Shown here: piece by piece, positions 7,003 through 30,098 of the stretch | Layout: each line of letters begins with the position of its first letter | Numbering within the stretch: the first letter of the stretch is position 1 | Assembly (NCBI GenBank): GCA_965242865.1 | Contig: CBDETK010000013.1 | Coordinates: forward strand, 5,280,001 to 5,344,000 | Reading direction: 5' to 3' | Source: Candidatus Latescibacterota bacterium | Lineage (GTDB): Bacteria; Latescibacterota; UBA2968; UBA8231 | Length of the DNA: 64,000 bases | Program-made: the position numbers and the translations under genes | The notes under the pieces: generated by a model | Seen by the model: only the letters and a program-made list of their open reading frames with translations | Database searches by the model: none | What the model was told of the DNA's origin: nothing

Positions 7003-7040
7003 GATGGATTCCGGTTCTCGCTTCCGTTATACTTCGATTT

Positions 7041-7880: not shown

Positions 7881-7895
7881 CCGCAAACCCGTTTC

Positions 7896-10390: not shown

Positions 10391-10415
10391 AGATTTCTCC
10401 TAAATTTAGACCTAG

Positions 10416-12047: not shown

Positions 12048-12072
12048 TGGAACCGCCTAAAGGAGTCAGCAA

Positions 12073-12104
12073 AGCGGTGTCGGCGCGCTTGGGCCGACAC
12101 CGCT
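12073..12104 (-). terminator. 12-bp perfect-stem hairpin after the secreted CBM9-like gene (terminator or mRNA stabiliser)
   Basis: agcggtgtcggc ... gccgacaccgct; only a short U tract on the minus strand. Confidence 0.55.
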
Positions 12105-12115
12105 CGCTTCACCCC

Positions 12116-13045: not shown

Positions 13046-13142
13046 GCGATTTTCCTCGTTTTAGAGTAAAACAACTCGACAAAAAGCACCTCGCTCGCCT
13101 TGCCAAAGCCCCTCCTTTCTCGGCGCGCAGTGGAAACGCTGG

Positions 13143-14426: not shown

Positions 14427-16471
14427 CAGGAGTCTTTCGCGTAGATCTTGCAGTACTGCTCGGAGTCCTTCCATGCCGAGTCGCCGTCAGGCAACCGCTC
14501 GTAAACGGCTTGATCTTCGTCCGCCAAATCCGCCAAATTCAGGCCCTTGACGTTCCTCTTTTTGACAAAGGCGTTATGGCCCAAGATCGCCTTTATCTTC
14601 GTCCAATCGTCGAAGAAGTACTCCTGCAGCAGAGGAAATATCTGGTTCTGGAACGCTTTCGATAACCCACCTATCTCATCCACCTCCAACAGGTATGTGT
14701 GTCCGATCTGGTGCTCCCGATCGAGCAGAACCGCGATGCGTTCATTCATGGTCTCGAGCATCGCCGCGCAATCAATGCCGTCAATGTCTCGGCAAATGCC
14801 CTTGTGTTCCGGGTCCGGCATCATCTCGATAAAGGCGAAGCGTCTTCGCAACGCAGTGTCGAGCAACTGAATGGAGCGGTCTGCCGTGTTCATCGTGCCA
14901 ATAATGTACAAATTGTCCGGGACGCCAAACTCATCTTGCGAATAAGGCAACGTGACGCGGGTCTCGTCCTTTTTGCCGATACGCCGGGAGTCCTCAACCA
15001 GCGTGATTAGCTCGCCGAAGATCTTCGCGATGTTGCCCCGATTTATTTCGTCAATGATCAGAACGAATCCCTCATCCCGTCGATCCTTGGCCGCTTCCAC
15101 GATGCGCTTGAAAATTCCCTCGTGGACCTCGTAGGCGAGATTGTTTTCTCCTCCCAACACGGGCCTAATGCCTTCGATGAAATCCTCGTAGGCGAAGTTC
15201 TGGTGAAAAGTCACCATTGCTATCTGGCCTTGCTCTTTCAATTCATCAAATCGTCCCTTGACCTTTTTGCGGTCTTCACGTTCAATTTCCTCCAAATTTT
15301 TGCCCTCAATAATTGCCAGCGCACGATAGACGGTGTTCCATGTCTTGCCGGTTCCCGGCGGGCCGTAGAGGATCTGGTTGAGCGGGTGTTTTGTTTCCAC
15401 AGAACCATTTTCAGGAGATGGTTCTTCTTCGATCTTTCCGCGGTTTTCCAGCCGATCGAGTAGCTCAAACGTCGAAGCATACGTTTGGCGAAATAAGTCG
15501 ATAGTGGGTTTATGGGCGCGAGAAAACCCAATCCTAGGCGCACTCGCTGATAGTGTTGCTTTTGTCTTGTTTAGCCATAACACATGTAATCGATGCTCCT
15601 CATCGAATTCGCCTTGGTAGTCGTTCTCATAGATGATTCCAATACCGCGGCCCTTCCATTGTCCGGTTCTGACGAGGATGACATCTCCAATTTTCGGTTG
15701 ATCAAGGGGATACTTCTTTTCTTCCCCGGGTCCTCCGGTGTAAACATGATTGTTCGATGTGAAATCGGCCCAATAATCGTCACCGTCGTTATACACATTT
15801 GTACTGACTTGGAAGCAAGTATCTGCATGAACAACCAACTCGCCTGACGATTGTAGATAGGCAAACAAGTTGGCCTCATAGAGATGGCACCCAGGCAATC
15901 CGGTCTTTACTCGGTCAATTAGTTGTCGATAGTGCTCCCAACTGATTTTGTTGGGAACCGAATCAAAGAAACCCAGAGAGTTCGTGTGGTCATCAATGGG
16001 GAAAAAGACTTCAGGATTGATGAGAAAGAGAACTTGTGTCAATTTCGCGGTCGCGACGTTGTCTATCCTCAGCGCACTTTCAAAATCACGGGGGTTGACC
16101 AAGCCGAATCCTGATACAGCATCCCGGAACAATCTCCAAAGCAACGATGGTTCGCCGCGAAAGAGAGCAGTGCGTGCTGGCGGCGTGGGGAATATGAACG
16201 CATTGTCGGAGTCAGGATCAAGCTCCCGACCCATGGCGAAAGTGCTGGCGATACTCGGATATATCCGCCTCCTGCTCGCCGGGGATGAGCTTCGGCTCGC
16301 AAGGGTGTAGAAAAACGACAACGGATCGATGTTCCGCAGCAACGCCGGTTCTCTGTCTCCGCTTCCCCACGGAACCGTCTTCACTCTTTCAATCAAGTAC
16401 TGTTCGCCGCCTTCGGCAATTTTCTCCGCGAGTTCCTTGAACCACGGCACCCAGTCGTATATCTCTTTCAT
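14426..16471 (-). CDS. mcrB: McrB family AAA+ GTPase
   Basis: GPPGTGKT, IIDEINRGN, MNTADRS, ALRRRF, IGHTY, PLLQEYF. Confidence 0.92.
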   Translation of the reverse strand: MKEIYDWVPWFKELAEKIAEGGEQYLIERVKTVPWGSGDREPALLRNIDPLSFFYTLASRSSSPASRRRIYPSIASTFAMGRELDPDSDNAFIFPTPPARTALFRGEPSLLWRLFRDAVSGFGLVNPRDFESALRIDNVATAKLTQVLFLINPEVFFPIDDHTNSLGFFDSVPNKISWEHYRQLIDRVKTGLPGCHLYEANLFAYLQSSGELVVHADTCFQVSTNVYNDGDDYWADFTSNNHVYTGGPGEEKKYPLDQPKIGDVILVRTGQWKGRGIGIIYENDYQGEFDEEHRLHVLWLNKTKATLSASAPRIGFSRAHKPTIDLFRQTYASTFELLDRLENRGKIEEEPSPENGSVETKHPLNQILYGPPGTGKTWNTVYRALAIIEGKNLEEIEREDRKKVKGRFDELKEQGQIAMVTFHQNFAYEDFIEGIRPVLGGENNLAYEVHEGIFKRIVEAAKDRRDEGFVLIIDEINRGNIAKIFGELITLVEDSRRIGKKDETRVTLPYSQDEFGVPDNLYIIGTMNTADRSIQLLDTALRRRFAFIEMMPDPEHKGICRDIDGIDCAAMLETMNERIAVLLDREHQIGHTYLLEVDEIGGLSKAFQNQIFPLLQEYFFDDWTKIKAILGHNAFVKKRNVKGLNLADLADEDQAVYERLPDGDSAWKDSEQYCKIYAKDS

Positions 16472-16521: not shown

Positions 16522-17322
16522 TCACAAAGCGACTCGATACCGTCTTGGATCGTCAACATTTGGATCAACCGCGATGCGACCAGCGACCAAAGGCTGGAAA
16601 TCCTCGCCGCTCATCGGCTCGTGCTTTTTCCAGCGGCCACGCATTTCAATCAAAACGCGCTGCCTTGACGGCGCGGGCATGGGATTGACGCGCACTACTT
16701 TCGCTGTGTAGTCATTGGGGCCTTCGGCCATCGCCCGGACCAAGTCGCTCACGAGATAGCGCGGCGTCCAGCCGATCATACAGTAGTCCGTCGTCTGGAG
16801 TTGCACGGCCAGCTTGGTCGCCGGATTGGTCAATTCGAGGGTTACGTACAGCTCTTCTTCTGGCTTGAGTTCATCGATCCGCTCTTGAGCCGCTTTACTT
16901 ACCCGTTGCCAACTGTGTAGGAAGAATCGACAGGTAAAATATCCGTCGGCGTCCTTTTCGAGTTTGGGGAATACCTCGTAGGCGTCCGTGACGCGCGTGC
17001 CGCCATTGACCGATAGAATTTCGACAGGAGTCGCGTCCTCCGAGAGATCGAGGCAGCGCAGGTAATCCAAGCGGTCCGGCCTTCCCTTTGCCATGACGCG
17101 ATTCCTGAACAACGCAAACAACTCTGAGGAACGGTAATCGCTATCTAACCAAGGAAAATCGATCAATGGAGAAAATCCAATTTCCCTTTCTGCGCGTTTC
17201 GCACCGCCGATATAGCGGAAGCGATAAAGCGACGGCTCGACATCCAACCTGCCCACCGGAAACCACGGTCGGCCTTCTGTTCTTCTATCCTGCCATGCCA
17301 AGAACAAGGTTTTCGTACTCAT
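16522..17322 (-). CDS. HIRAN-type protein with HipA-N-like N-terminal region
   Basis: ATG 17322 with AAGGAG RBS. LFLAWQD..WFPVGRL..YRFRY..LF..F.NRV..RPD N-terminus; ELTNP..A..IGWTPRYL..VVRVNP C-terminus. Confidence 0.65.
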   Translation of the reverse strand: MSTKTLFLAWQDRRTEGRPWFPVGRLDVEPSLYRFRYIGGAKRAEREIGFSPLIDFPWLDSDYRSSELFALFRNRVMAKGRPDRLDYLRCLDLSEDATPVEILSVNGGTRVTDAYEVFPKLEKDADGYFTCRFFLHSWQRVSKAAQERIDELKPEEELYVTLELTNPATKLAVQLQTTDYCMIGWTPRYLVSDLVRAMAEGPNDYTAKVVRVNPMPAPSRQRVLIEMRGRWKKHEPMSGEDFQPLVAGRIAVDPNVDDPRRYRVAL

Positions 17323-17932
17323 CGAAAAATCTCCTTTAGCTGGTTTATCGAGTAGTTCTCGTCCTAGCGAGGTCGCGTGATCAAAAGATGGTGCCACAAA
17401 TCCCCTCAAGCTATAATCTTGGCGTCGGAGAAGCAGACCCCAATTCTCGTGATGACGATCCGTATTGCCAATCAGCGCATCTAACACCATGTAACTCCGC
17501 AAGAATACGTTTCGCTCGGCTCGCAGCTTCAGGATTGGCAAAAACGCGGTCCATTCCTGCAAAGATATTCGCCAGCGTATGCTGCGATTGGTGGAATTTT
17601 TTCTTGGGATCGTAATCGCCAACGGTCCACCCCAATACTTGGTTGCCGTGATATAACGCCCTGCCGCCGCGGGCAAAAGATTTTGTCGTCGAACCACGCC
17701 CTCCTTCAAACCCTGCCAATTCCACCTTCGCGTGTCTAACTCCGATCACAGACGCAACTTCCGCGGCAATTTTCTCTGACCAGTGTTCCCCGGTGTCTGG
17801 ACGAGGATACTTGAAGAGCCATCTTACTTCGCCATCAGGATCGCGATACCAAAACTTCGTCTTGGTTCCCATATCTTCCCGGTCGATGACCCATTCCGGT
17901 TTCACTTCAACGATGCGATACAGGTCTGCCAT
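17323..17932 (-). pseudogene. HipA/CtkA-like Ser/Thr kinase, frameshifted and C-terminally truncated
   Basis: GTKTKFW, LFKYPR, EHWSEKIA in one frame; LDALIGNTDRHHENWG..APSFDH in another. Extra base near 17493; the frame runs into the next gene soon after SLGRELLD. Confidence 0.75.
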
Positions 17933-17950: not shown

Positions 17951-20900
17951 TCACGCCGCATTTTCGTAATACGGCGACGGCACTGTTGGGTAGGCGCGGA
18001 ACACGTGCCGGAATAGGTCGTCCGTCTTGGTTTTGACTTCGGCTTCCGAGTAATCACCTGTGGGTAAGCCGGTTTCGTCGCTCCACAGGAAATCATAGAT
18101 CGCAACATGGACAGCATCCCGGGTCGCTTGCTTGTCGCGCCACTGGCTCACGCGCAGCTTCTCGGCCTTCAGCGTTTTCAGCAATTTGACGGCGACTTGC
18201 TTGATCCGCTCGCGCTTCGGTGCGCTCAGGTTCGATTTCTGCAACAGATCGAAAATCGCCAGCGACTCCTCGTCCAAGCCCTCGCGGGCCGCCCGACTCT
18301 CCTCCTGATCCAGCTCCTGAACCAAATCGAGTAACTCCTCAAAGGTCTGTTCGATGGTCGGGCGATCTTTCTCGCGGTTGTAGGCCGCGACGATTGCTTC
18401 GTAGCGCTGCTGGAAATCCGTGCGTAGTGGGTTCCGCTCCAGCATGCGCTGGAGTTTCTTTTGTATGGTGTCCTTGAGTTGCTGCACGTCGGTGCGCTGG
18501 CGGGCACTGTGCCTGAACTCCTGCTTGAGCCGCTCAAAGTCAATGCGGCTGATGTCGTAGAGGGACTGTCCGGCCACTGTGCCCGGCTGCACCTCAACCG
18601 CTTCACTCGCCACCTCGTGCAACGCACGGAGGATGTCGCTGATGTCGGCCCGGTCCCGGTCCCGTTGCAGGCTCTTGTAAATGATGTCAATGGCGTCTCG
18701 GTCCGTGCGGTGGTCGTTGACAACGGAGGCGTTGATGCACGCCCGGAACTTCCTGAACACCTCGCGGCACATCACCTCAAAACGCCGGCGGGTCTCGTCG
18801 TTCTCGTTGACGACCTCCTTGCAGGAGACGATGGCGGCGTTGCGCCCAAAGCCAGTTTGGCCGATGACGTCGTCGAGCGGCACACCGCCTCTAGCGAGAA
18901 AATCGCGCATCAGCGCAATCGCCTCGGCCAAGTCGGCAAGCAGGTCCTCTTCCGGCTTGGCAGGGTCCATTGCGTGGCCTTCACCGCCCGGTTCTGCGCC
19001 GGCAAAGGTCGCCAGTGCATGACGCAGATGCTTGAGGATGCCGCAGTAATCCACGATCAGCCCGTTGTTTTTGCCTTCGTTCACTCGGTTGGCGCGGGCA
19101 ATGGCCTGCATCAGCGTGTGTGCCTTGAGCGGCTTGTCGAGGTAGAGCGTGGAGAGGCAGGGCACGTCAAAGCCAGTCAGCCACATGGCGCAGACCATGG
19201 CGATGCGGAACGGATGCGCTGGCTCCTTGAAGGCATCGTCGAGATCCATGCGCTGCTTGTTGCGGAACGCTGGCTCGTCGCGCAGGGACGCGGGCAGTTC
19301 CATGCCCTCCTTGATGAGCCGACGGTGCGGTATAATATCCAAGCCCACCTCGTCGAACTTCTCCACCTCGCCCTGTTCCTCGCTCACCACAACGGCCATG
19401 CGCGTCTCGCGCATCCATGCGATCTGCTTTTCGGTCTGTTCGTCCTGTGTCCGCTCAAGCTCGGCTTCCAGTTCATTGGCGTACTCGTTCCAATAGAACT
19501 CAATCAGCCGGTGCATCCGCACACAGGTGATCTTGTCGATGCAGATCAGCATGGCCTTGCCGGTCTCCCAAGCGGTCGAATAATGCCGCACGAAATCCCG
19601 CGCAATCTGATCGAGCCGCTGTTTAGCAGTGATGACATGGTAGTCTTGTGCAAGTGCCTGCTCCAAGCGCTGCTGCACGTCAATATCGTCGATTTCAAGC
19701 TCCTCTAATTTCGCGGCGATGCGCTCGTTCAGGTCGCCGATGGCCACCTCTAGTTTGTCGCCGCGGGCGTCGTAGTAGAGCGGCACAGTGGCCTCGTCTT
19801 CTACGGCGCGTTGGAAGTCGTAGGTGGAGACGTACTCGCCAAAGACCCGCCGCGTGAGTTCGTCGTCCTTGAACAGCGGCGTCCCGGTGAAGCCGATATA
19901 GCTGGCGTTGGGCAGGGCGGTGTGCATGTTACTCGCGAGCGTACCGTACTGAGTGCGGTGCGCTTCGTCCGAGACGACGATGAGGTCGTCGCGGTCGGTG
20001 TACGCCGCGCTGGGATTCGCGTTGAACTTCTGAATCAGCGAAAAGACGTATGCCTTGTGCTCGGTCAAAAGCTGGCTCAGGTGGCGTCCATCGGACGCTC
20101 GGCAAGGATCGCGGTCGTGATTTACTACATCACAGCCGGCGAAGGTCTTGTAGATTTGGCTGTCGAGGTCGTCGCGGTCGGTTAGCACTAGAAAGGTAAA
20201 ATTGCCGCCTAACTTGCGACGCACCTTGCGGGTGAACATCACCATGGAGTAGCTCTTGCCCGCGCCCTGCGTGTGCCAGAAAACGCCGAGTTTGCCACTG
20301 CGCGTTTTGCGCTGGCGCACGGCTTCAACGGCGCGGTTCACCCCCAAGAACTGGTGGTTGCGAGCGAGGATTTTCCTCGTCGTACCGGACGACTCGTCGA
20401 AGAGGATGAAGTTCTCCACGAGATCCATGAAATCGCGCTTGTCGCAGACGCCCTTGAGCAGCGTCTCCATATCCACGACGCCCGGTTCCTCTTCCTCCAG
20501 CCGCTTCCACTCGTGGAAATGCTCCCACTGGCTGGTGATAGAGCCGATCTTCGCCTGCTCGCCGTTGCCGAACATCACTACTGAGTTGTGGTGAAAGAGA
20601 TAGGGGATGGTGGTTTTGTAATCCGAAAAGTTTTGATCGAAAGCGGCCTTGAGGTTGCGGTGGATGTTCTTGCACTCAATGAACAGCAGGGGCAGGCCGT
20701 TGACAAAGCCCACGATGTCGGCTCGCCGGCGGTAGAGGTCGCCGCGCACCCACAACTCGCGCACACAGAGAAAGCGGTTGTTCTCCGGCGTCTCAAAGTC
20801 AAAGACCTTTAGCCGCTGCCGCACCCGCTCGTCCTTGTCGTTGTGGAAGGTAACCGGGACGCCATCGCGCAGCAGGTCGTATTGCTTGCGGTTGGCGGCG

Positions 20901-21169
20901 ACGAAAGTCTGCGAAGCGGCGGTGGCGGTAATCTGCTGCACGGCGTCGTCATAAGCGGCGTCCGGCAGGCCCGGATTTAGCGAGCGCAGCGTAGCGTGTA
21001 GATGGCGAGTCAGCACTACCTCGCGGTCGGAAGTGCGGCCCAGCAGGCTGGTTGGGCCGAAGTCTTCACTGTTGTAGGCGTAGATGGCTTCCCAGCCGAG
21101 TCGGTGTTCTAAATAATCGGCCGTGGTCTGCTGGACGAGGATGTCTTCAGTGTAGGGCGCGGGGGTCAT
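17951..21169 (-). CDS. hsdR: Type I restriction enzyme R subunit
   Basis: ADIVGFVNGLPLLFIECK nuclease, WHTQGAGKS, DEAHR, GFTGTP, MWLTGFD, QAIARANR. Start at ATG 21169. Confidence 0.95.
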   Translation of the reverse strand: MTPAPYTEDILVQQTTADYLEHRLGWEAIYAYNSEDFGPTSLLGRTSDREVVLTRHLHATLRSLNPGLPDAAYDDAVQQITATAASQTFVAANRKQYDLLRDGVPVTFHNDKDERVRQRLKVFDFETPENNRFLCVRELWVRGDLYRRRADIVGFVNGLPLLFIECKNIHRNLKAAFDQNFSDYKTTIPYLFHHNSVVMFGNGEQAKIGSITSQWEHFHEWKRLEEEEPGVVDMETLLKGVCDKRDFMDLVENFILFDESSGTTRKILARNHQFLGVNRAVEAVRQRKTRSGKLGVFWHTQGAGKSYSMVMFTRKVRRKLGGNFTFLVLTDRDDLDSQIYKTFAGCDVVNHDRDPCRASDGRHLSQLLTEHKAYVFSLIQKFNANPSAAYTDRDDLIVVSDEAHRTQYGTLASNMHTALPNASYIGFTGTPLFKDDELTRRVFGEYVSTYDFQRAVEDEATVPLYYDARGDKLEVAIGDLNERIAAKLEELEIDDIDVQQRLEQALAQDYHVITAKQRLDQIARDFVRHYSTAWETGKAMLICIDKITCVRMHRLIEFYWNEYANELEAELERTQDEQTEKQIAWMRETRMAVVVSEEQGEVEKFDEVGLDIIPHRRLIKEGMELPASLRDEPAFRNKQRMDLDDAFKEPAHPFRIAMVCAMWLTGFDVPCLSTLYLDKPLKAHTLMQAIARANRVNEGKNNGLIVDYCGILKHLRHALATFAGAEPGGEGHAMDPAKPEEDLLADLAEAIALMRDFLARGGVPLDDVIGQTGFGRNAAIVSCKEVVNENDETRRRFEVMCREVFRKFRACINASVVNDHRTDRDAIDIIYKSLQRDRDRADISDILRALHEVASEAVEVQPGTVAGQSLYDISRIDFERLKQEFRHSARQRTDVQQLKDTIQKKLQRMLERNPLRTDFQQRYEAIVAAYNREKDRPTIEQTFEELLDLVQELDQEESRAAREGLDEESLAIFDLLQKSNLSAPKRERIKQVAVKLLKTLKAEKLRVSQWRDKQATRDAVHVAIYDFLWSDETGLPTGDYSEAEVKTKTDDLFRHVFRAYPTVPSPYYENAA

Positions 21170-22448
21170 TGGGGCTGCCAAACGAGTAGGGCTTGCGATC
21201 CTGCGGCGGCACGACCTCCGGTACTTGAATACGACACAGAGGTTTTGTTGTTGGTAGGCTCTTTGTGGGACGGCCAAGATGATAGGCGGAGATAATTTCT
21301 TCCTTTATTAACCCTTTATGACCAGAACGTACAGGAGGCAGCAATCTATCGTTGATGGGATCGCTGAATCGGTCAAAAAGTGTAAAGCCCTTCTCCTCCA
21401 AAATTGTGTGTAGAATATTCCAAGTACATATTCTGAAACCTCCGACAAGGTTGTCTCCACATACAACTACTAGGCAAGCATTCTGCTTCAATGACTCCTT
21501 CACTGCGTCGAATGCATTACTCATGTCGTAAAAATAGCGATGGACAACGGCACAAAGCCGAGGTGTGCTGGTTTTTAATCGCCTCAACTCCGGTATCAAT
21601 GCGAGATCTCTCTCGATAGATTCCTGAGAAACTCGTTCCAATAATTGACCTCGTTCCGTCCCTACGAAGCGTTCCCGAAGGTTGCTCACTTTGAAGGGCA
21701 AGATACCTTCCAACAGGTATAGCTCCAGCTTGAAGTTTCGGAAGTAGTCCTGTGCGTTTATGTAAGGTGGAGAGGTTATAGCATGGGAGTGTCTCTCTAG
21801 GCCATCAAACTGACGACGAGGATCGCAGACATCAGCACAAACAAAACGAAAACGAGTGTTCTCTTGCCGATCGACACCATAGAGTGCTGAAAGCTGTTCC
21901 AATAGTTCAAGGATAATTCGGTTTGGATCGAAATGCCGGCCAGTTCTTGAGCGCCGGGCTTCCTGCGATATGAAAGGTTTTGGGCTGCGCTGATCGGCTC
22001 TGGAGCATAGTCTAACAGCGAGGGTGTAACTGAGAAGGACAGCCCAGCCTTCGGGATTGTTTCTGAGAGGAATAATCTTACTCGCGGCTCTCAATCGCTC
22101 GAACTTGTTAAGAGTACCCCGCGTAAACCAGTAGTCCTTTCTACTCCAATCAACTGGTAGAGGCTCAATGGGTCCCTCTGCCTCCGAGATCCATGCCCTG
22201 CCAAGTCTTAGAGCACGAGTGGGATCGAATCCCTTGATCTTTACTCGACAAAACAATTCTGAGATCGGATTCAGATCAACGCCGGAAACGGGAAGTCCAG
22301 CTTGATTGGCAGCAACGAGGATGGCACCCGATCCGCAGAACGGATCAAAAATAGAATCAGCCTCAGAGGCGTACCGTTGAATCAAGCGTTTGGCTAGCTT
22401 GGACACCATTTTGGCAGGGTAGCGGTCCAGTTTTGTGGGCAATCTCAT
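21147..22448 (-). CDS. DNA amino-methyltransferase (N4-C/N6-A type), third gene of the TIR cassette
   Basis: YPAKM, DPFCGSG (motif I), GVDLNP, TSPPY (motif IV). Confidence 0.85.
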   Translation of the reverse strand: MRLPTKLDRYPAKMVSKLAKRLIQRYASEADSIFDPFCGSGAILVAANQAGLPVSGVDLNPISELFCRVKIKGFDPTRALRLGRAWISEAEGPIEPLPVDWSRKDYWFTRGTLNKFERLRAASKIIPLRNNPEGWAVLLSYTLAVRLCSRADQRSPKPFISQEARRSRTGRHFDPNRIILELLEQLSALYGVDRQENTRFRFVCADVCDPRRQFDGLERHSHAITSPPYINAQDYFRNFKLELYLLEGILPFKVSNLRERFVGTERGQLLERVSQESIERDLALIPELRRLKTSTPRLCAVVHRYFYDMSNAFDAVKESLKQNACLVVVCGDNLVGGFRICTWNILHTILEEKGFTLFDRFSDPINDRLLPPVRSGHKGLIKEEIISAYHLGRPTKSLPTTKPLCRIQVPEVVPPQDRKPYSFGSPNDPRALH

Positions 22449-23401
22449 TTGTCGTCAGCCGTCTTCAGGATCCAAGTCTTACCGAGTCCTCTAGAAAAGA
22501 AAGCATGATTGTGCCGTAGCGGGCCGGCATAGACGATTGCTGGTGGGTCGTCTGATTCCCTGATGTAGTTATAGACACCTAAAGTCTGTGGCTTGGTCCC
22601 GAGTGGACAGATAATCCTCGCAAAATCATCTCTCCTAGACTTTGACTTTCCGAGAACATCTATGAGAGTCTCAGTTGTAGCGTCTGGATCGAGCGCATCG
22701 ATTTTGCGAACTGCTTGTTCGTCAACCAAGGATAGAAGGTCACGGTTGAACTGCTCGGTTCTTCCCGTCCAGCTTGGTTGGTATGGAGGATCTGGCACCG
22801 CTAGGGTCGTCTTCATCGGCTGGATGTGTTCATAGACCGCCAACGCCCGATCACCTTCATACCCCAAGAACATCATCAGGTGAACGGGCCTACTGAGATC
22901 TGGGCACGCAGAAAAACCGGGGATTTGCTGGAGGGAAGCGAGTCCGAATGAGAGAGGAATGTATTGAGAAACTAGATAATCACCTGGCTCACTATACACG
23001 ATGTATAGTCGGCTCCAAAGATTATAGTCATCAAGCCATCTCAGCATCATAAGCAGATGCCGTTTTGTAAAAACGGATATATCAATTACGATAGCACTAT
23101 AGTCTGCACGATCTATAGTACGCCGAAGATGCTGCATGTTATCGCGAAGGCTACTGACCGCATCCGATTCGGTGAACTGGAGAACCGTCACCCGAGAAGC
23201 CATATTCTGAAACTCGGACTCCATGAGGCGATGGTTCCCTTCACGGATAGGGTTAGTGTCATCGTAGTGGAAGAAAACTACTTCGTCCAGCGACCAACTC
23301 TGGACATGGGACAGTAATCCCTTACATCGGTCTTCGTGACTGGAACATGTAACAAGAACTGCTCGATCTGGTAAGTCTCCTAATCTAAGTTGTCGTTTCA
23401 C
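22445..23401 (-). CDS. Uncharacterised alpha/beta protein, second gene of the TIR cassette
   Basis: 318-aa ORF with 4-bp overlaps to both neighbours. Motif-like blocks SHEDRC, DISVFTK, YSEP..Y, FLGYEGDR, PLGTKP. Confidence 0.75.
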   Translation of the reverse strand: MKRQLRLGDLPDRAVLVTCSSHEDRCKGLLSHVQSWSLDEVVFFHYDDTNPIREGNHRLMESEFQNMASRVTVLQFTESDAVSSLRDNMQHLRRTIDRADYSAIVIDISVFTKRHLLMMLRWLDDYNLWSRLYIVYSEPGDYLVSQYIPLSFGLASLQQIPGFSACPDLSRPVHLMMFLGYEGDRALAVYEHIQPMKTTLAVPDPPYQPSWTGRTEQFNRDLLSLVDEQAVRKIDALDPDATTETLIDVLGKSKSRRDDFARIICPLGTKPQTLGVYNYIRESDDPPAIVYAGPLRHNHAFFSRGLGKTWILKTADDK

Positions 23402-25683
23402 TCGCGGCCTCCCGGTGGAAAGGGTAGATTGCCTTGCACCTCTCTGGGTTTCGCTACTCCGGGTTTCTCTACAGTGTTCTTTAATTCTCGAATCGCTTGA
23501 GCCCTCTTACCAGGCTGAAGTAAACGCTGCAAGTGCCTGCATTTTACGTTAGTTCTCCAGCGGAGTCGTGGACTGATCTGGAGAACAGGCGCGTAAACTC
23601 GACAGATATTGAATTCCGTGGGTTGAGGATCGGACCCGTGTTTCGGCTTGAATGCAGGACGCCCCTCCTTAGTCTGAAACACTCCTTCTCTCTCCCCGAC
23701 TGCGAGGATGCGCTTCAGCATCTTCATTGTGTCTTCTTCCAACATCTCAGGGTCCTTTATCGTTAGACGCGCCGCTTCCGGTTCGCTTGTATGCTTGAGT
23801 AATTTATGCCTCAAACAATCACCGAGGTCTAGTAGGAAATACTTAAGCTCTTCGCCATGTCGCTCTACATTTTTGCTAAGTGTAGTAAGGTTGTGTTGAG
23901 AGACGATATGGACAGCCTGGGATTGTTGCTCTGGTGGGAGAATAAGAACGCCTTGAGGAGGAGGATCAGCTTTGAATGTAAGATGATAGCCCACACTCAA
24001 AAACTCTTGAAAATAGCGGATTACTCCAGATCCCAAAAGTGCAAGTTCTTTGAACCCTGCGAACCGTTTCTCAGCATGGCGTCCGGGCCTTCCAATAAGG
24101 ACCCGATAGGTCGCTGCTTCACCATAGTACGTTTTCTTTTCGCGTTGCTTTTCGTTTGGTAAATTCTCAAATTCCTCAAGAGTGATCTTATGGAGCTTTA
24201 CCACTTCTGCTAACCACAAGGACTCATCGACTTCGGAATCGCGGAAACGAGGAAGGAGTTTATCCACATCAACCGACTGAGAGCTTTCAAGCTTAGCCAT
24301 GTTTGATACGATATGGCTCAGTAGTTCATAATAGGCTTTTCGTTCAGCCGGGACTTCGACGTTGTAAACTAATGGCACTCTTGTATAGTCGTGAATCTCT
24401 TGTAGATCCTGACCTGTCGTGGTTCCCGGTATATCTTCACTAGCAAGTTTCTTGGCAATTTTGATTGAGATATGCGGAGGACCAAGTTTGAGCAGACTAT
24501 TGACTATTCGCCTCTGATAGGGGAAGAGATTCTCATACTCGTCAAGCAAAACAACGAACATCGACTTTTCGAGCGACGGAGTGTGGTGGCGTACTAAAGA
24601 TATGACACGTTTTAGTTGCTCCAGATCAAGAGTAGCTATCGGGACCGAGGCGGAGTCCCCATAAATGAACCTACGGCGAATGAAATCAGCTAGCTTTTTG
24701 TGCATATCTGAGAGTTTGATTTGCAGTTCGACGAACGAGATAGCCTTATGCCCATTGGAATCGAACAGCAGTTCGTCCGCCGCTTCGCAGAAGTTCCGTT
24801 CGACAAGTCGGTCATGATTGATCAAGGCGTGCTCAACGCAGTACACCAGTTCCGATAACAGACTCTCCGTTATCTGTAGATACAGTTCTTGTGCAGCCAC
24901 GTCTCTGAGGACGGCGGTGTGAATAGTTGAATCTAGGTGTTCGTCCTCAAGAGGGACTCCCGCATTGCAGATTGCCCCGCGGGTGAGCTTCAAGTAAAAA
25001 CCGAAGCGTTGAGGTGCGTCTTCTTCGCCGGGGCTCCGTTGTAGAAAATTACGAGCGCGTAAAGACAGCAAGAGCATTGACTTACCTGTACCTCTCGATC
25101 CTTCGAGAATGCACGGTTTCATGTCCTCAAGTGCTCCGACTTTTATCGCGTCTGGTAAAGCGAAGGTCTTTGCGTAGAGTTCGGGCTGATACTCGAAGAA
25201 TTCAGCTCTAAGATGGCGGAAGGGATTTTTTGAATTGGGAGTAAAAGCCTCGGCAACCAAAGACGAGGTTGTCTGTTCGCTGAATAGTACGTCGCAGATG
25301 CCTTCCACTAACTTCCTTAGGGATTCTTGGTCGCTTTGTATCAGCTTCCCATACACCTTAAGACCAAGTATAGGTGGTATCGGTGTATCGTCTAGACGGA
25401 CGACAATACATTTCCCACCAGATTGAGAAACTTGGTTCCAAACTGCGGCATCGATTTCAAGGTTCTGCCAATTCGCGCCAGCGGTGTGCTTGGAGAAGAG
25501 AATAATGACTACAGCGGCATCTGCGATTCCATCGTTCATAAAGGCAATGGCGTTGTCCCCAAGACTAAGGTCTTGGGTGTCGATCTTAGTCTCATGGCCG
25601 GCATTGCGCAGATGCTCTGCCAACTCTGTTGCAATTTCCTCATCTGGGGTGGCATGTGAAATGAAGATATGCTTGATACTCAT
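23398..25683 (-). CDS. TIR domain fused to a P-loop NTPase (STAND/ORC-CDC6-like)
   Basis: N-terminal IFISHA...LFS...WQNLE TIR with Glu at the catalytic position; NPF..LRAE, Walker A GSRGTGKS, Walker B VLLDEYEN; AAGGAG RBS. Confidence 0.85.
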   Translation of the reverse strand: MSIKHIFISHATPDEEIATELAEHLRNAGHETKIDTQDLSLGDNAIAFMNDGIADAAVVIILFSKHTAGANWQNLEIDAAVWNQVSQSGGKCIVVRLDDTPIPPILGLKVYGKLIQSDQESLRKLVEGICDVLFSEQTTSSLVAEAFTPNSKNPFRHLRAEFFEYQPELYAKTFALPDAIKVGALEDMKPCILEGSRGTGKSMLLLSLRARNFLQRSPGEEDAPQRFGFYLKLTRGAICNAGVPLEDEHLDSTIHTAVLRDVAAQELYLQITESLLSELVYCVEHALINHDRLVERNFCEAADELLFDSNGHKAISFVELQIKLSDMHKKLADFIRRRFIYGDSASVPIATLDLEQLKRVISLVRHHTPSLEKSMFVVLLDEYENLFPYQRRIVNSLLKLGPPHISIKIAKKLASEDIPGTTTGQDLQEIHDYTRVPLVYNVEVPAERKAYYELLSHIVSNMAKLESSQSVDVDKLLPRFRDSEVDESLWLAEVVKLHKITLEEFENLPNEKQREKKTYYGEAATYRVLIGRPGRHAEKRFAGFKELALLGSGVIRYFQEFLSVGYHLTFKADPPPQGVLILPPEQQSQAVHIVSQHNLTTLSKNVERHGEELKYFLLDLGDCLRHKLLKHTSEPEAARLTIKDPEMLEEDTMKMLKRILAVGEREGVFQTKEGRPAFKPKHGSDPQPTEFNICRVYAPVLQISPRLRWRTNVKCRHLQRLLQPGKRAQAIRELKNTVEKPGVAKPREVQGNLPFPPGGRE

Positions 25684-25779
25684 ACTCTGTCAGACTCCTT
25701 ACCTTTCGTAGTAAGCGGTTTCATAACTAGCGTCGGGCCGCCTCAAGGAGCGTCCAACACCTTCGCGTTGACGCATTTT

Positions 25780-26952
25780 TCATCGGACGCGACGCTTTTG
25801 ATTCAACGTTTTTTCTGCGCATAACGAACCGAATCCGGCTACCAAACGCGGCAGAAGCAGGTCGCGGGCTTGGGTGAGTTGTAATATTCCCTGCTTCAAA
25901 CAACGCACTTGCCGAATAATATCGCCAGCCAATCTCCGAAACTCGAAAACCAAAGACTCCGCTGGGACGATAATATCCATCTGACGAAATCTTCCCTTGC
26001 TTATTTCGGGATACGTCGTACCCTTCGCGTTGCTTCGGATCTCGGAGACCCGACTCATCAGGTTAAAAAGCAGGAACATCCTCATCGCCTCATCGTGAGG
26101 AATGATATTGATAAATCCTTGATTAGTACAGGATTCAACATCCATAAGCGCGAAAAACCCCACGGATGCCCGGCTCGTCATCAGGATAGTGTTCGCCGGA
26201 ACCAGTTGTGCAGACGATTCACGAAGTCCTTTCTCGGTAATCTTGCGTTCCGAGTCAAGTAGGACCAAGCAGTCGTTTCTGGTAACGTCTGTTGGAACGA
26301 CCCAAGTGATGTCGCCTTCCCAATACTCTGCCACTCTGGTGGATGGAGTGCCACCTCCAACAGTATCACATACGTCGGCTATTTTTTTCTTTTCCCACCC
26401 CTCCGGCACACCGTCCTCGACCTTGATGTGCTCATGGCCGGGGAAGCGAAGGTGAACAAACCATTCCTTATAGAGCAGCCGCGCCGCCTGCTCCAGTAAC
26501 TGAATCCGCCGCCGATTGTTCTCTATCAGGTCGTCGTAAGCGGAAAGGATGGAGGCAACGCGCTTTTGCTCGCATAGAACAGGCACTTCAAGCGAAAGCG
26601 TGTCTAATACATTGCGATTCAGCGTCGGAACAGACACGCCGCCGTTGAAGCGTTCAAGATGTAGAGTTTGGAGTTTATAGTAAACGAACTGTGGGTCATT
26701 GCCCTTGAAGTCTCTGACCCAGAGTACCGTATTGTGAGGCCAGTATGGTTGGTTGATGTACTGAACTCGTCCTAGAGTGCCGGACCTTCCTGTCACAACC
26801 CCCGGAGGTTCCACCTTGGCTTCACTGTGAAAACCGATCACACTGTGGGATCCGAGAACCGGAACATCGCCATCGTCCATCTGGGACTTAGGCAGGTCGA
26901 ACCCTCTCTGTAGAGTCACAAAGTCCTTAAATAGAAGACGCTTCCTGTTCAT
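25780..26952 (-). CDS. hsdS: Type I R-M specificity subunit
   Basis: Two TRDs with conserved EQKRVASILSAYDDLIENNRRRI, VPEGWE, GGGTPS and ARDLLLPRL. Start at ATG 26952. Confidence 0.93.
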   Translation of the reverse strand: MNRKRLLFKDFVTLQRGFDLPKSQMDDGDVPVLGSHSVIGFHSEAKVEPPGVVTGRSGTLGRVQYINQPYWPHNTVLWVRDFKGNDPQFVYYKLQTLHLERFNGGVSVPTLNRNVLDTLSLEVPVLCEQKRVASILSAYDDLIENNRRRIQLLEQAARLLYKEWFVHLRFPGHEHIKVEDGVPEGWEKKKIADVCDTVGGGTPSTRVAEYWEGDITWVVPTDVTRNDCLVLLDSERKITEKGLRESSAQLVPANTILMTSRASVGFFALMDVESCTNQGFINIIPHDEAMRMFLLFNLMSRVSEIRSNAKGTTYPEISKGRFRQMDIIVPAESLVFEFRRLAGDIIRQVRCLKQGILQLTQARDLLLPRLVAGFGSLCAEKTLNQKRRVR

Positions 26953-27001
26953 TCTCTGGCCTCGATCTGTTTGTACAAAACCCACCTGCAGCACTGTTTG
27001 C

Positions 27002-27193
27002 CTACTCCTCGTACATCTTAGGATCCGGTTCAATCTCAATGACCTCGCCTTTTTCCATAACCACTACCCCGGTCTTGTGCTGATGGGCAACCTTATGTGC
27101 GCGTCTGGCGGCCCGGTGTAGCGCGTTAAGGACATCCTGCGTTTCCTTATCGTCATATTGCGAGGCAGGGGTATCTCGGTTTTGTTCAGTCAC
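27002..27193 (-). CDS. Small protein, probable partner/antitoxin of the zeta-like kinase
   Basis: 63 aa, overlaps the upstream gene. ALHRAARRA...GVVVMEKGEVIEI pattern typical of partners of this ATPase family. Confidence 0.65.
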   Translation of the reverse strand: MTEQNRDTPASQYDDKETQDVLNALHRAARRAHKVAHQHKTGVVVMEKGEVIEIEPDPKMYEE

Positions 27194-27714
27194 AGGTTTT
27201 CTCCCTTATCAATCAATGTAGGAATACGGCCGCTATTATCAAACCGCTGCCAATAATCGACGATGGGGCGGTACGTATTCTGAAAATTCTGCAACCCGCT
27301 CGCAAAGCGGCGGCGAATAACATCCGGTGGAACGTAGTGGCCGCCTTGCCTCACGCGCAATTCAACCCGCTTGATCGCTTCTTCCGGCGTTGCCAGCGAC
27401 AGAAATATCAGCTTGACCGCATACCCGTCGCCGCGCCAGCGCGGGATCATCCGAGCATAGCCGAGACCAGACAAGGTCGTTTCAAAGGCAAAACTTCTTC
27501 GCTGCTGCACGTGATTTTTAATCTCTTCCAACATCAGCCGACCGGCGCGAAAAAGAGCGGCGTCCGGCTGAAAGGGGGACAAACCCGTTGCGATCAAGTC
27601 GGCGTTGACAAAGGCGGGACATTGCGCCTCGTGCGGCAAATGCTCCAGTGCAAAGGTCGTTTTCCCCGCACCATTGGGTCCGGCGATGATAATGATTTTC
27701 CGGTCCGCGTCCAT
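27190..27714 (-). CDS. Zeta-toxin-like / AAA_33 P-loop kinase
   Basis: IAGPNGAGKTTF, FVNADLIA, FAFETTLSG, RVRQGGH.VP. ATG 27714. Confidence 0.85.
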   Translation of the reverse strand: MDADRKIIIIAGPNGAGKTTFALEHLPHEAQCPAFVNADLIATGLSPFQPDAALFRAGRLMLEEIKNHVQQRRSFAFETTLSGLGYARMIPRWRGDGYAVKLIFLSLATPEEAIKRVELRVRQGGHYVPPDVIRRRFASGLQNFQNTYRPIVDYWQRFDNSGRIPTLIDKGENL

Positions 27715-27718
27715 CGCC

Positions 27719-29806
27719 TCATATCCCCAACGTCTTGAAGTTATGCTTGATGGTTGCCGCCAGCGTCGCCGCCTCTGCGTCAAGCCCGTCCAGTTCCTCG
27801 TGAATTTCGCGCAGAGCCTCCCTAAAGTCGAAGTCCTCGTCCTCCTCTTCGGGCGCGATCCCCACGTAGCGACCCGGAGTCAAGCTCCAATCGTTGGCCT
27901 CAATCTCGGCGCGATCCACCAGCTTAACCAGCCCTTCCACATCGCGCAGTTCAGCGTCTGGAAAACGCTCGGTGAGCCAGTGGGCCTCCTGATAGAAGTA
28001 GCGCACCTGCTTGAGTTGCTCAACGGCGCACTGGCGGGCCTCGTCGGCGGCCCTACAGGCGCGAGTGACGCCGCGGGCGTCATAGACGGCACTGGACTTG
28101 GCGTCGCATTCCTCCGCGCAAATCTCGATGAGGTGGGTAGCCAGCTTGTACAGGTGCTCGGTCTGTCTGGCAAGATCGCGGCTACGCTCGGCCAGCGAGG
28201 CGAGGCCATCAACCCTCGGCTTCATCGTGCCGCTGTTAATTTTCTGCCCGGCCCAAGCCTCCCGCTGCGCGGAGATTGCCTTTTGGAAAGCGTCCCCATC
28301 CGCCTCAAACTCGCGCAGGGCGTTCGCCAACTTCTCGGACGCCTCGGCATGGGCGTCTTCTGCATCCAGCGTATTGAGAAAGGGAACCAGCACATCCCGT
28401 AGGCTGTTGAGCGAGATTAGAAAATTCGGCAGGCCAATGCTAAAACATCCCTTCCCCTCGTCGAGAGCACGGTCGCAATAGCGCGACACCAACTCGACAA
28501 AACGCTCCCTCTCGCCCCGGTAGAGCCAGACGATAGCCAGCAAGTTCTGCTGCTGTTCGGGGCTGAAGTCGCAGATTTTGCGCGTCACTTGGCGGTACAC
28601 AGTGCGGGCGTCGATCATCAGCACCTTGTCGCGGTGCGCCTCGGGCTTGCTGCGGTTGAAAAACCACAGCTCGCACGGCACGGTGCGGGTGTAGAAGAAA
28701 TTGTTGCGAATGGCGATCATCGCGTCCACATCGCCGCTCTCCACCAGTTTCCGCCGCACCTGCGCCTCGCTACCACCAGCACTAGACGCCTGCGACGACA
28801 TCACAAAGCCGGCCCGGCCCCGCTCGTTCAGATAGCTGTAGAAGTAGCTAATCCAGACGTAGTTGCCGTTGCTGACTTTGCCCTGCTTGTTGACGCCAGG
28901 CAGGCCAAACGGCAAGCGCGGATCAACCTTCACCTTGTCGGCGTCAATCTCATCCACATTAAAGGGCGGATTGGCCATGAGGTAGTCGGCCCGCCCCACC
29001 AGTTCGTGCGGATCCTCATAGTACGTAATGGCCTGCTGGATGTCGCCTTCGAGTCCGTGGACAGCGAGATTCATCTTGGCGAGGTGGATGGTGGTGGCGT
29101 TTTTCTCCAAGCCGCGAAACGTGAGCCGCTCGGTGGGACTTTGGCCGTGCTCCTCTACGGTGCGGGCACTCTGTACGAACATGCCACCGGAACCACACGC
29201 CGGGTCCAGCACCGTGCCGCGCTGCGGGTCGAGCACATGGGCGATTAGCGACACCAGCGACACGGGCGTGAAAAACTCCCCGCCGTCGTGGGCCTTCTGA
29301 TCGGCGAACTGCGTCAGGAAGTACTCGTAGATGCGGCCGAAGACATCGCCGGAGACCTGCTTCAACTCGTCCGGGTTGAGCGTCCGCAGGAGTTGGCCGA
29401 GGACGGCACTGTCCAATTCCCGGTATTCGCTCTTGGGCAGAACGCCGCGCAGGTTATCGTAGTCATCTTCAATGGACTCCATGGCCGCGATGATAGCCCC
29501 GGCCCGATCCGCTCCATCGGGCAAGGCGACGAGGTAGTCAAACTGCGCTTCGGGCCGGAGAAAAATAGCACTCTTTTGCGAGAAATCTCCTTTGGTAAGT
29601 CCCCGCCTTATGCCGTCGCGAATGGGCAGATTATCCTCGATGCCGGGCTTGACGGCCAGATAGCGGCTGTAGGCGTGACGTAGAAAGACCAGTCCCATCA
29701 CCGGCAAAAAGTACTCGTTGCTGGCGTGACTGGTATTGGCGCGGAGCGTATCTGCCGCGCTCCAGAGGCGTCTTTCAATAGCTTCAATATGTTCGAGTTG
29801 CGACAT
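27719..29806 (-). CDS. hsdM: Type I R-M methyltransferase subunit
   Basis: LWSAADTLR, GRIYEYFL, GEFFTP, DPACGSGGMF, ANPPFN, WSLTPGRYVG. Confidence 0.95.
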   Translation of the reverse strand: MSQLEHIEAIERRLWSAADTLRANTSHASNEYFLPVMGLVFLRHAYSRYLAVKPGIEDNLPIRDGIRRGLTKGDFSQKSAIFLRPEAQFDYLVALPDGADRAGAIIAAMESIEDDYDNLRGVLPKSEYRELDSAVLGQLLRTLNPDELKQVSGDVFGRIYEYFLTQFADQKAHDGGEFFTPVSLVSLIAHVLDPQRGTVLDPACGSGGMFVQSARTVEEHGQSPTERLTFRGLEKNATTIHLAKMNLAVHGLEGDIQQAITYYEDPHELVGRADYLMANPPFNVDEIDADKVKVDPRLPFGLPGVNKQGKVSNGNYVWISYFYSYLNERGRAGFVMSSQASSAGGSEAQVRRKLVESGDVDAMIAIRNNFFYTRTVPCELWFFNRSKPEAHRDKVLMIDARTVYRQVTRKICDFSPEQQQNLLAIVWLYRGERERFVELVSRYCDRALDEGKGCFSIGLPNFLISLNSLRDVLVPFLNTLDAEDAHAEASEKLANALREFEADGDAFQKAISAQREAWAGQKINSGTMKPRVDGLASLAERSRDLARQTEHLYKLATHLIEICAEECDAKSSAVYDARGVTRACRAADEARQCAVEQLKQVRYFYQEAHWLTERFPDAELRDVEGLVKLVDRAEIEANDWSLTPGRYVGIAPEEEDEDFDFREALREIHEELDGLDAEAATLAATIKHNFKTLGI

Positions 29807-29829
29807 ACCCATCCCGCAGTAAAAGGGGC

Positions 29830-29862
29830 TTACATGCTCCCCGCAATCAGATACCTGATCAT
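29830..29862 (-). pseudogene. Probable vapC remnant (MIRYLIAGSM*)
   Basis: The ATG overlaps the vapB stop (TGATG). MIRYL resembles the VapC start M.RY.LDTN, but the ORF stops after 10 codons. Confidence 0.45.
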
Positions 29863-30098
29863 CACAGTTTTTCCCGCTGTCCATCGGCTGGCTGACCCCG
29901 TGCAGACATAAAATCATCTGAAACACCGGGGCCGTTGAACCACTCAGCCCAACTCTCGCCAGCAGGCGTGATAACGCGCTTTGACCCTATCGCGACGATA
30001 TCGACCTCTCGCACCGATTCCGGCAGCTCGACGGCTTTGGGCAGCCGCACCGCTTGGCTCTTGTTGCTCATAAAAACTTTCGTGTGTGCTGTTGCCAT
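29862..30098 (-). CDS. vapB: VapB/AbrB-MazE family antitoxin
   Basis: TKVFMSNKSQAVRLPK...W.EWF.G.GVSDDFM..R.QP; GAGG RBS. Confidence 0.88.
   Translation of the reverse strand: MATAHTKVFMSNKSQAVRLPKAVELPESVREVDIVAIGSKRVITPAGESWAEWFNGPGVSDDFMSARGQPADGQREKL

Follow-up and report, generated by a model that had tools for sequence, protein, structure and literature searches.

The window analysed here is a stretch of 64,000 nt from the genome of a Candidatus Latescibacterota bacterium (contig CBDETK010000013.1, positions 5,280,001-5,344,000), and coordinates are window positions unless another locus is named. Its subject is a set of three genes that sits inside a Type I restriction-modification operon: gene 1 encodes a TIR domain fused to an ORC-CDC6-like ATPase, gene 2 a protein of the CARF6 clade and gene 3 an amino-methyltransferase (Table 1). 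All genes discussed lie on the minus strand, and the open reading frames (ORFs) follow one another in the order hsdM, hsdS, gene 1, gene 2, gene 3 and hsdR. An earlier note on this DNA had described three coupled genes of low GC content that split the Type I operon, and this description holds. Genes 1 and 2 overlap by 4 nt (23398-23401), as do genes 2 and 3 (22445-22448), hsdS and hsdR form the flanks, and the GC content over 21200-25799, where the three genes lie, is 0.45-0.51 in 600-nt windows. By the same measure, it is 0.58-0.62 in hsdR and hsdM, up to 0.68 beyond the island and likewise low in hsdS (0.50-0.53). The longest hsdR ORF begins at 21277; read from the sequence, the ATG at 21169 (MTPAPYTEDIL...) is the likelier start. 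Because hsdR probably starts there, the final 23 nt of gene 3 overlap it. A promoter and terminator scan returned sites no more numerous than in shuffled sequence and is uninformative on operon structure.

Table 1. Positions of the three genes, their domains and motifs, the mobile cassette and the Type I flanks in the window.
Feature	Position	Strand	Basis
gene 1, TIR + ORC-CDC6-like AAA+ ATPase, 761 aa	23398-25683	-	ORF + Pfam
gene 2, tandem Rossmann-like CARF6-clade protein, 318 aa, GTG start	22445-23401	-	PADLOC, AF2, Foldseek
gene 3, amino-methyltransferase, 433 aa	21147-22448	-	PF01555, PADLOC MTase_II
TIR domain of gene 1, residues 6-126	25306-25668	-	Pfam TIR_2
ORC-CDC6-like ATPase region of gene 1, residues 153-708	23560-25227	-	PF24389
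E76 codon of gene 1 TIR (W72-x-x-x-E76)	25456-25458	-	alignment to solved bacterial TIR domains
gene 1 Walker A codons, G195-S202	25078-25101	-	
gene 1 Walker B codons, V377-E382	24538-24555	-	
gene 2 N-terminal half, ~residues 14-142	22976-23362	-	
gene 2 C-terminal half, ~residues 173-313	22463-22885	-	
gene 3 motif I DPFCGSG	22326-22346	-	
gene 3 motif IV SPPY	21762-21773	-	
mobile cassette extent	21216-25720	-	DNA homology to other genomes, blastn
hsdS	25780-27039	-	PF01420 1.1e-37; PADLOC Specificity_I 1.2e-103
hsdM	27719-29926	-	PF02384 1.5e-74; PADLOC MTase_I 7.1e-256
hsdR, start taken as ATG 21169	17951-21169	-	Pfam domains

Gene 1 opens with a TIR domain (Pfam TIR_2, E 1.3e-20), followed by a region that matches the ORC-CDC6-like family PF24389 over almost the entire profile (E 9.7e-49, profile positions 1-566 of 571). 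The Protein Atlas also returned PF24389 clusters for the C-terminal part of the protein. The WQNLE motif has its glutamate at residue 76 rather than 75. This residue aligns with the glutamate of the W-x-x-x-E motif in the solved bacterial TIR domains 7uxr, TcpB and PdTIR, which we take to be the catalytic residue of TIR NADases, and is retained in 21 of 22 aligned homologues of gene 1. This alignment omits five loci, namely L004, L008 and L010, where insertions interrupt the ATPase, L013 with its split match and L020, which is cut by a contig end. All 22 retain Walker A as well as the DE of Walker B (D381, E382), and G195, G198, G200, K201 and D381 of the ATPase are invariant among 32 homologues. 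Both the glutamate at the catalytic position and the intact Walker motifs claimed in the earlier note are thus borne out. Pfam gave no NACHT match for gene 1 (two homologues have NACHT matches that are below threshold and at the level of the P-loop), and no repeats were found in it. Gene 1 thus differs from STAND/Avs proteins, which have a NACHT or NB-ARC core together with a C-terminal repeat or sensor region. Membership in the PADLOC families PDC-S66, bSEFIR, RT-TIR, mad8 and mad2 was rejected because the matches span only the TIR domain, the P-loop or motif I.

The earlier note could name no family for gene 2, and Pfam and NCBIfam searches gave no match either. However, nine PADLOC models named 'CARF6--CARF_CARF_CARF' match the protein, all at E <= 3.6e-8, and the best of them (PDLC01917, E 1e-26) covers residues 14-311 against profile positions 16-299 of 308, so that gene 2 does belong to a nameable family. 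The CARF6 models in PADLOC-DB are PDLC01911-01923, and the name of the clade is said to go back to Makarova et al. (NAR 2020). An AF2 model built on a 105-sequence alignment (pLDDT 94.4, pTM 0.93) consists of two alpha/beta Rossmann-like halves; it replaced an earlier model, built on 20 close homologues, that was poor in the second half (pLDDT 69). About 140 residues of the protein are recognised by Foldseek as CARF domains with probability 1.0, the matches being Csm6 (E 4.5e-4), Cam1, Can2 and the ring nucleases Sis0455 and Sso2081. Matches over the whole length to the C-terminal domains of cation-chloride transporters were rejected, as the root-mean-square deviation is 17-18 Å and the likeness amounts merely to two tandem Rossmann-like halves.

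Relatives of gene 2 are numerous. A large protein collection holds 450 at E <= 1e-3, the best 120 of which are 58-97% identical to it, mostly ~316 aa long (a few down to 273 aa) and without informative names; the Protein Atlas gave unnamed clusters only. A profile search of 1.84 billion representatives yielded 1574 relatives at E <= 1e-3, 521 at 1e-10 and 80 at 1e-30. Residues that are nearly invariant across the family are E23, R25, D107, Y136, G153, L175, G180, E182, R185, P195, P266, G268, K270 and G275, and eight of these (E23, R25, D107, G180, E182, P266, G268, K270) come after strands 1 and 4 in the two halves. This is the place at which CARF domains bind their ligand, and the conserved residues may mark a putative ligand pocket. 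Gene 2 carries no effector domain of its own beside its two halves. From these models, it is a member of the CARF6 clade and a predicted CARF-type nucleotide sensor.

Gene 3 matches PF01555 (4.1e-12) and PADLOC MTase_II (8.5e-22) in its N-terminal motif I region. DPFCGSG occupies residues 35-41 and TSPPY residues 225-229, giving the order motif I, an insert of ~165 residues and motif IV. All 25 aligned sequences share D35-S40 and TSPPY, while G41 differs in two; L007 (split match) and L026 (no methylase) are omitted from this alignment. At the N-terminal motif I, PDB sequence matches are to a putative modification methylase and to DNA N4-cytosine methylases, and the SPPY motif is commoner in N4-cytosine than in N6-adenine enzymes. 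The tail beyond ~residue 400 is found in the window only (identity 0.10) and runs into hsdR. Pfam, PADLOC and NCBIfam revealed no nuclease family in genes 1 or 2, and the earlier description of gene 3 as an intact amino-methyltransferase without a cognate endonuclease agrees with these results.

Genes 1 and 2 were co-folded, as the earlier note had proposed. The ATPase part of gene 1 (residues 141-761) and CARF6 gave ipSAE values of 0.71, 0.80 and 0.82 (median 0.80), while the best of three controls scored 0.00. At least 76% of contacts were common to the runs, and partner pLDDT was at least 82. The mark applied to these scores is attained by 58 of 80 solved complexes and by 2 of 110 mismatched pairs, a calibration that is rough only because custom alignments were used. 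The predicted interface joins ATPase residues 229-242, 318-342 and 601-611 to CARF6 residues 152-173 and 184-196, and leaves the putative pocket residues outside. Further, the two proteins occur as natural fusions in L067 (1218 aa, 6220-9876) and L068 (1122 aa, 6506-9874), each with an amino-methyltransferase gene ahead of it. CARF6 thus probably binds the TIR-ATPase.

The three genes recur together. A scan of one genome per species yielded 26 loci. In 25 of them, tblastn with the window proteins found the three genes (ATPase, CARF6 and methylase) arranged in the same order on one strand, which is far more often than expected by chance. The conserved triplet that the earlier note suggested looking for in the neighbourhoods of homologues is therefore real. 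The loci span about ten bacterial and archaeal lineages, and their sources include Latescibacterota, Nitrospirales, Vicinamibacterales, Bryobacterales, Holophagales, Verrucomicrobiae, Hydrogenedentota, Brocadiia, Planctomycetes and Spirochaetia among bacteria, and Methanoregula, a Methanobacteriota metagenome-assembled genome and Nitrosopumilus among archaea. An ATPase homologue is present in all 26 loci and a TIR domain in 24 (21 by tblastn and three archaeal ones by Pfam); L020 is cut by a contig end and L026 shows no TIR signature. Across loci, the identities of the three proteins to those of the window drop in parallel from ~90% to ~30%, as expected if the genes are inherited together, and in about half of the loci (L001-L011, L013) all three are at least 60% identical. 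When the genes of the 26 loci were clustered all against all, no fourth recurrent gene emerged, and no Pfam family occurs in more than two of 114 flanking proteins. The flanks of the other loci hold housekeeping genes together with BREX, Avs4, Hma, HEC-06, Type IIG/III and PDC-S02 genes. For the fetched loci, gene calling followed a crude longest-ORF rule, which in high-GC loci sometimes chose an antisense ORF in preference to gene 2; tblastn or jackhmmer matches were used in such cases.

DNA homology delimits the unit that moves. L001 is the same island at the same chromosomal place, and its cassette is 89% identical over window positions 21216-25719 (blastn), whereas L002 shares with the window only 21266-25720, at 82% identity; together, these limits define the mobile unit. 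ISL3 transposases lie inside the ATPase gene in L004 (7543-9246) and L010 (7258-8892). Other inserts in the cassette were seen in L008, where ~7550-8470 holds an unnamed 283-aa ORF, and in L056, which has two of ~1.5 kb (7570-9015 and ~10170-11730), one of them encoding a UPF0236-like protein. A plasmid search returned a single distant match (22% identity, Spirosoma, annotated as hypothetical) and a phage search returned none.

The cassette has relatives within its own genome and phylum. A second set lies ~3.1 Mb away in the window's genome (L033 6607-11319, ~2138600-2143320) with all genes co-oriented, and consists of a C5 methylase (PF00145, 5.5e-66), HD-CE (PF24391, 1.3e-20), a TIR-less ATPase and CARF6. 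The ATPase of this set is a 588-aa protein of the ORC-CDC6-like family (PF24389, 4.6e-100). A 1263-aa SIR2-TPR protein and an AAA_15/AbiEii-like ATPase are encoded nearby. A CARF6 gene was found in 18 of 168 genomes of the phylum, among them 4 of 30 further members of the window's genus; the distribution is patchy. Twenty loci of the phylum (L033, L055-L073) were examined, with Pfam run on one representative per architecture. L055 and L001 appear to be one locus, which is counted once in this set and once in the set of 26 loci, the two sets being reported separately.

In 18 of these 20 loci, CARF6 directly follows, or is fused to, an ORC-CDC6-like ATPase; the exceptions are L057, which has no ATPase, and L064, which is cut by a contig end. 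What accompanies the pair varies. The order TIR-ATPase, CARF6 and amino-methyltransferase occurs in two loci, and the C5 methylase, HD-CE, ATPase and CARF6 arrangement in five (L033 and four more). Three loci combine an amino-methyltransferase and PRTase-CE (PF24390, 3.7e-69) with the pair (L069, and L070 and L072 by size and position). Two add a ~990-aa DUF1156 protein to amino-methyltransferase, ATPase and CARF6 (L066, and L073 by size and jackhmmer likeness), and two pair an amino-methyltransferase with the ATPase-CARF6 fusion (L067, L068). In three others, a kinase-like domain is fused to the N-terminus of the ATPase (L060 10128-13870, L061 5042-9945, L065 9151-13191); a DruA neighbour (PF14236, 1.2e-115) was confirmed by Pfam in L060 only. 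One locus (L071) has PRTase-CE, ATPase and CARF6 with a weak MTS-type methyltransferase. An adjacent methylase is present in 14 of the 20 loci, or 15 if the latter is counted. In L069, a gene for a ThyX-type thymidylate synthase (PF02511, 1.4e-51; 8049-9029, minus strand) comes after CARF6 and overlaps its end, and a gene of similar size is found in L072 (9755-10702). ATPase and CARF6 are most likely the constant core of a larger modular family, of which the cassette is the version with a TIR effector.

Based on these observations, the favoured reading, held with moderate confidence, is that the triplet is an autonomous, horizontally mobile anti-phage cassette, the TIR version of the modular ATPase-CARF6 family, and that it does not depend on the Type I enzyme. 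The SPPY methylase would mark host DNA. The ATPase and CARF6, which are predicted to form a complex from the co-fold and the natural fusions, would act as a sensor or switch reading an infection cue tied to DNA modification, and this cue could be unmodified incoming DNA recognised through the ATPase or a nucleotide ligand in the CARF pocket. ATP-dependent assembly would then unite the N-terminal TIR domains, leading to NAD+ hydrolysis and aborted infection, as suggested by the conserved glutamate and the precedent of TIR NADases. CARF6 stays with the ATPase whether the accompanying part is TIR, HD-CE, PRTase-CE or a kinase, and TIR is therefore placed in the effector slot. Of the 26 loci, 25 retain the methylase, and a C5 methylase replaces the amino-methyltransferase in five sister loci. 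Since unrelated methylase families fill the same role in the operon, modification itself seems to matter. The earlier note had offered two readings, a back-up guard of the Type I enzyme and a methylation-based system whose effector depletes NAD. Judged from sequence comparison, the second appears the better of the two, and the retention of the methylase and its exchange for a C5 enzyme fit it.

Several observations weigh against the favoured reading. Outside the TIR domain, gene 1 shows PDB profile matches at the level of the P-loop only, and no DNA-binding domain has been demonstrated in the ATPase. The second half of gene 2 is marginally CARF-like by sequence (best PDB match the CARF domain of Card1, E 0.03). 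The co-fold score is a measure of model confidence and supports binding of the two proteins only as a prediction. For the methylase, PDB sequence matches include tRNA m2G enzymes. Its central insert has a mean identity of 0.51 vs 0.59-0.66 elsewhere, with no hypervariable target-recognition part, which would be unusual for a classical marker of self and non-self of the restriction type. Further, the ATPase-CARF6 loci L060, L061 and L065 have no adjacent methylase, and the Nitrosopumilus locus L026 has neither the TIR signature nor a methylase homologue. Directly downstream of the ATPase-CARF6 pair, L026 encodes an AlwI-like endonuclease and a C5 methylase (the region spans 7774-14029).

Among the alternatives, the one that survives best, and is still unlikely, gives the methylome the role of a danger signal: phage-degraded methylated host DNA would release methylated (deoxy)nucleotides, which would bind CARF6 and switch on the ATPase-TIR NADase. 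The CARF fold is that of a nucleotide sensor, with the conserved residues at canonical loop positions; conservation extends along the full length of the methylase, which has no hypervariable specificity part; and the effectors of the sister systems target nucleotides. On the other hand, ORC/Cdc6-type ATPases usually act on DNA, and C5 and amino methylases would each require a matching pocket. The missing hypervariable region may fit nucleotide sensing slightly better than it fits recognition of unmodified DNA, which is a weak argument. PUA-Cal-HAD is described as sensing m6-dAMP from degraded Dam-methylated host DNA (bioRxiv 10.64898/2026.01.15.699771), and this provides a precedent. That system (PUA-Calcineurin-CE-HAD) resembles the cassette in having a nucleotide-depleting effector under a small-ligand sensor and a link to the methylome; it differs in that its protein families are unrelated and that it uses host Dam, whereas the cassette brings its own methylase. 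The likeness would serve as a working analogy only. Slightly more doubtful again is the stronger proposal that the cassette makes its own danger signal and that CARF6 would be the first sensor of the CARF type for modified mononucleotides, in a system that relies on neither CRISPR nor cyclic-oligonucleotide synthases.

A Thoeris-like scheme, in which TIR makes a messenger of the cyclic ADP-ribose type that is received by CARF6, is improbable. As in Thoeris itself, a bacterial TIR domain with a conserved glutamate and a Rossmann-type nucleotide sensor share one operon. The TIR of gene 1 is nearest to the bacterial TIR domains 7uxr, TcpB and AbTIR, it has weak ThsB-type matches at or below threshold (PF08937, 21.1 bits vs a cut-off of 21.2), and CARF is a messenger-binding fold. 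However, CARF6 is kept beside the ATPase in the TIR-less HD-CE, PRTase-CE and kinase versions. It has no effector domain of its own, and genes 1-3 include no ThsA-like partner (SIR2 or Macro with a SLOG sensor). Since the sensor persists in the TIR-less sisters, TIR is more likely the effector, and from the sequences a role as signal maker for CARF6 appears unlikely.

Even less probable is the guard idea of the earlier note, modelled on PrrC, whereby the Type I enzyme would silence the cassette and an anti-restriction protein inhibiting that enzyme would fire it. As with PrrC in EcoprrI, the textbook precedent, the cassette lies co-oriented between hsdS and hsdR. The start of hsdR overlaps gene 3, and a relative of another genus in the same family (L056) has the related order hsdM, hsdS, cassette, 4 kb of other genes and hsdR. 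Nevertheless, tblastn with the window's Type I subunits found hsdS next to the cassette only in L001 among the 26 loci, and the one other trace of Type I genes is an hsdR fragment 4 kb upstream of the cassette in L019. Nesting between hsdS and hsdR is thus confined to close relatives, and the nested copies, being 77-89% identical in DNA, may stem from one inherited event. In L001, hsdR, hsdM and McrBC are mostly gone while the cassette is intact. Pfam and PADLOC found neither the ABC-ATPase nor the anticodon-nuclease domain of PrrC in genes 1-3. The comparative evidence therefore goes against the guard. Defence genes embedded in Type I operons have been documented as a general pattern, and they are almost always co-oriented (bioRxiv 10.1101/2024.01.29.577857). 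The position therefore supports a defence role but is no demonstration that the cassette needs the Type I enzyme; it most likely reflects insertion at a known hot spot for embedded defence genes.

The surroundings contain further genes of interest. In L001, the closest relative, the place of hsdR is taken by a gene for a 502-aa protein with Schlafen AlbA_2, HATPase_c_4 and Fic-like_C matches (12214-13722), and a gene of equal length lies upstream on the opposite strand. In L019, YgjP, a TIR protein of the CAP12/Pycsar type and a ThsA-Macro protein are encoded between the hsdR fragment and the cassette. In the window, hsdR has the Pfam domains HSDR_N, SWI2_SNF2, ResIII, T1R_D3-like and T1RH-like_C. 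The Type I operon hosts a second embedded gene between hsdM and hsdS, a 197-aa ORF (27190-27783, minus strand) with Zeta_toxin (8.2e-10) and AAA_33 matches, and the DNA of this region is kept in L001 at 85% identity (window 27005-27714). Directly downstream of hsdR (16522-17709, minus strand) lies a gene for a 395-aa protein that matches PADLOC PDC-M03A and PDC-M03B, with weak HipA_C and HIRAN matches besides, followed by McrB (14426-16471, minus strand) and McrC (13143-14474, minus strand). With these genes downstream, the region qualifies as a defence island.

Very improbable, too, is a selfish addiction module, as opposed to a defence system, with the methylase as antidote and the TIR-ATPase as poison, which would stabilise the island that carries them. 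In favour of it are a layout like that of restriction-modification, horizontal inheritance, patchy distribution and copies inactivated by insertion sequences. However, addiction is compatible with defence, most restriction systems being both, and the cassette's flanks are rich in defence genes, with a single distant plasmid match and no phage match. Least credible of all is an ancillary role in Type III CRISPR immunity with CARF6 sensing cyclic oligoadenylate from a Cas10 elsewhere in the genome, because, although CARF domains are the classical sensors of this messenger and a full-length Csm1/Cas10 (536 bits, 4777206-4779509) is encoded ~500 kb away in the genome of the window, a Csm1 match occurs in only 5 of the 18 CARF6-bearing genomes of the phylum (partial in two of the five) and in neither of the other two carriers of the TIR version, and RAMP genes account for 2 of 114 flanking proteins. 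Csm1 was searched across the CARF6-bearing genomes and Cmr2 in the window's own genome only. The Csm1/Cas10 match in itself indicates that the genome has CRISPR of Type III-A at that distance. Many CARF clades, though not all, are tied to Type III CRISPR; for the cassette, these searches showed no such link.

With regard to known systems, no full PADLOC system model covers the triplet, as the earlier note had expected. Its statement that no named system has this composition stands in that respect, but not for the parts: ATPase, CARF6, HD-CE and PRTase-CE all have library models (PF24389, PF24391 and PF24390, which with one another form consecutive Pfam accessions, and the PADLOC CARF6 set). 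The ATPase-CARF6 family thus seems already to have been catalogued computationally, and TIR-ATPase/CARF6/methylase looks like the TIR variant of a catalogued family whose building blocks and sister architectures already have models. A literature search that covered neither Makarova et al. 2020 nor Nicastro et al. 2023, nor supplementary files, found no description of a TIR-ATPase with CARF and a methylase, and the system may nonetheless have been published. Nicastro, Burroughs, Iyer and Aravind (NAR 2023) reportedly assigned effectors of the HD-CE, PRTase-CE and Calcineurin-CE kinds to a wide range of predicted immune systems. In a later report, '-CE' is expanded as 'conflict effector' with credit to Nicastro et al. 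2023 (bioRxiv 10.64898/2026.01.15.699771). Orc/Cdc6-TIR fusions are mentioned in a paper of the Aravind laboratory beside a second Orc/Cdc6 protein and a KAP NTPase, not in this triplet (PMC10853773), and the word 'TIR' does not occur in the available text of a BREX survey (PMC12839542).

The cassette shares with the conflict-effector ATPase systems a full-length PF24389 match with intact Walker A and B in gene 1, and its own genome and relatives pair ATPase and CARF6 with HD-CE or PRTase-CE and a methylase. It differs from them in that TIR is fused to the ATPase and the SPPY amino-methyltransferase lies downstream. From the CARF6 clade come the full-length profile match and the CARF-like fold of the first half of gene 2, while the absence of a fused effector, the two tandem Rossmann-like halves in one chain and the AAA+ ATPase partner set gene 2 apart. 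BREX and its relatives (BrxC/DUF499 ATPase with PglX/DUF1156 methylase) similarly combine an ORC/Cdc6-type ATPase with a methylase and no recognisable nuclease, and the DUF1156 protein of the sister loci L066 and L073 (the latter by size and jackhmmer likeness) adds to the resemblance. However, the cassette has no PglZ, PglX, BrxL, BrxA, BrxB, BrxC or DUF499 and has TIR and CARF6 instead. Gene 3 shares motifs I and IV with the amino-methyltransferases of Type II restriction-modification, but no cognate endonuclease is found in the cassette. Unlike PrrC, the cassette has no ABC-ATPase or anticodon nuclease and is mostly found outside Type I operons.

To our knowledge, CARF sensors are known almost solely as receivers of CRISPR-made cyclic oligoadenylates. 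Here, in bacteria as well as archaea, a protein of the CARF type is combined with an ORC-like ATPase, a methylase of its own and exchangeable nucleotide-destroying effectors, and no signal synthase is visible in the cassette. The cassette also illustrates clearly that genes embedded in a Type I operon do not necessarily depend on it for their function. At 4.5 kb and with conserved proteins, it offers a practical model. The ligand of the pocket and the mark set by the methylase would separate a restriction-like system that ends in NAD+ loss from a sensor of methylome danger signals.

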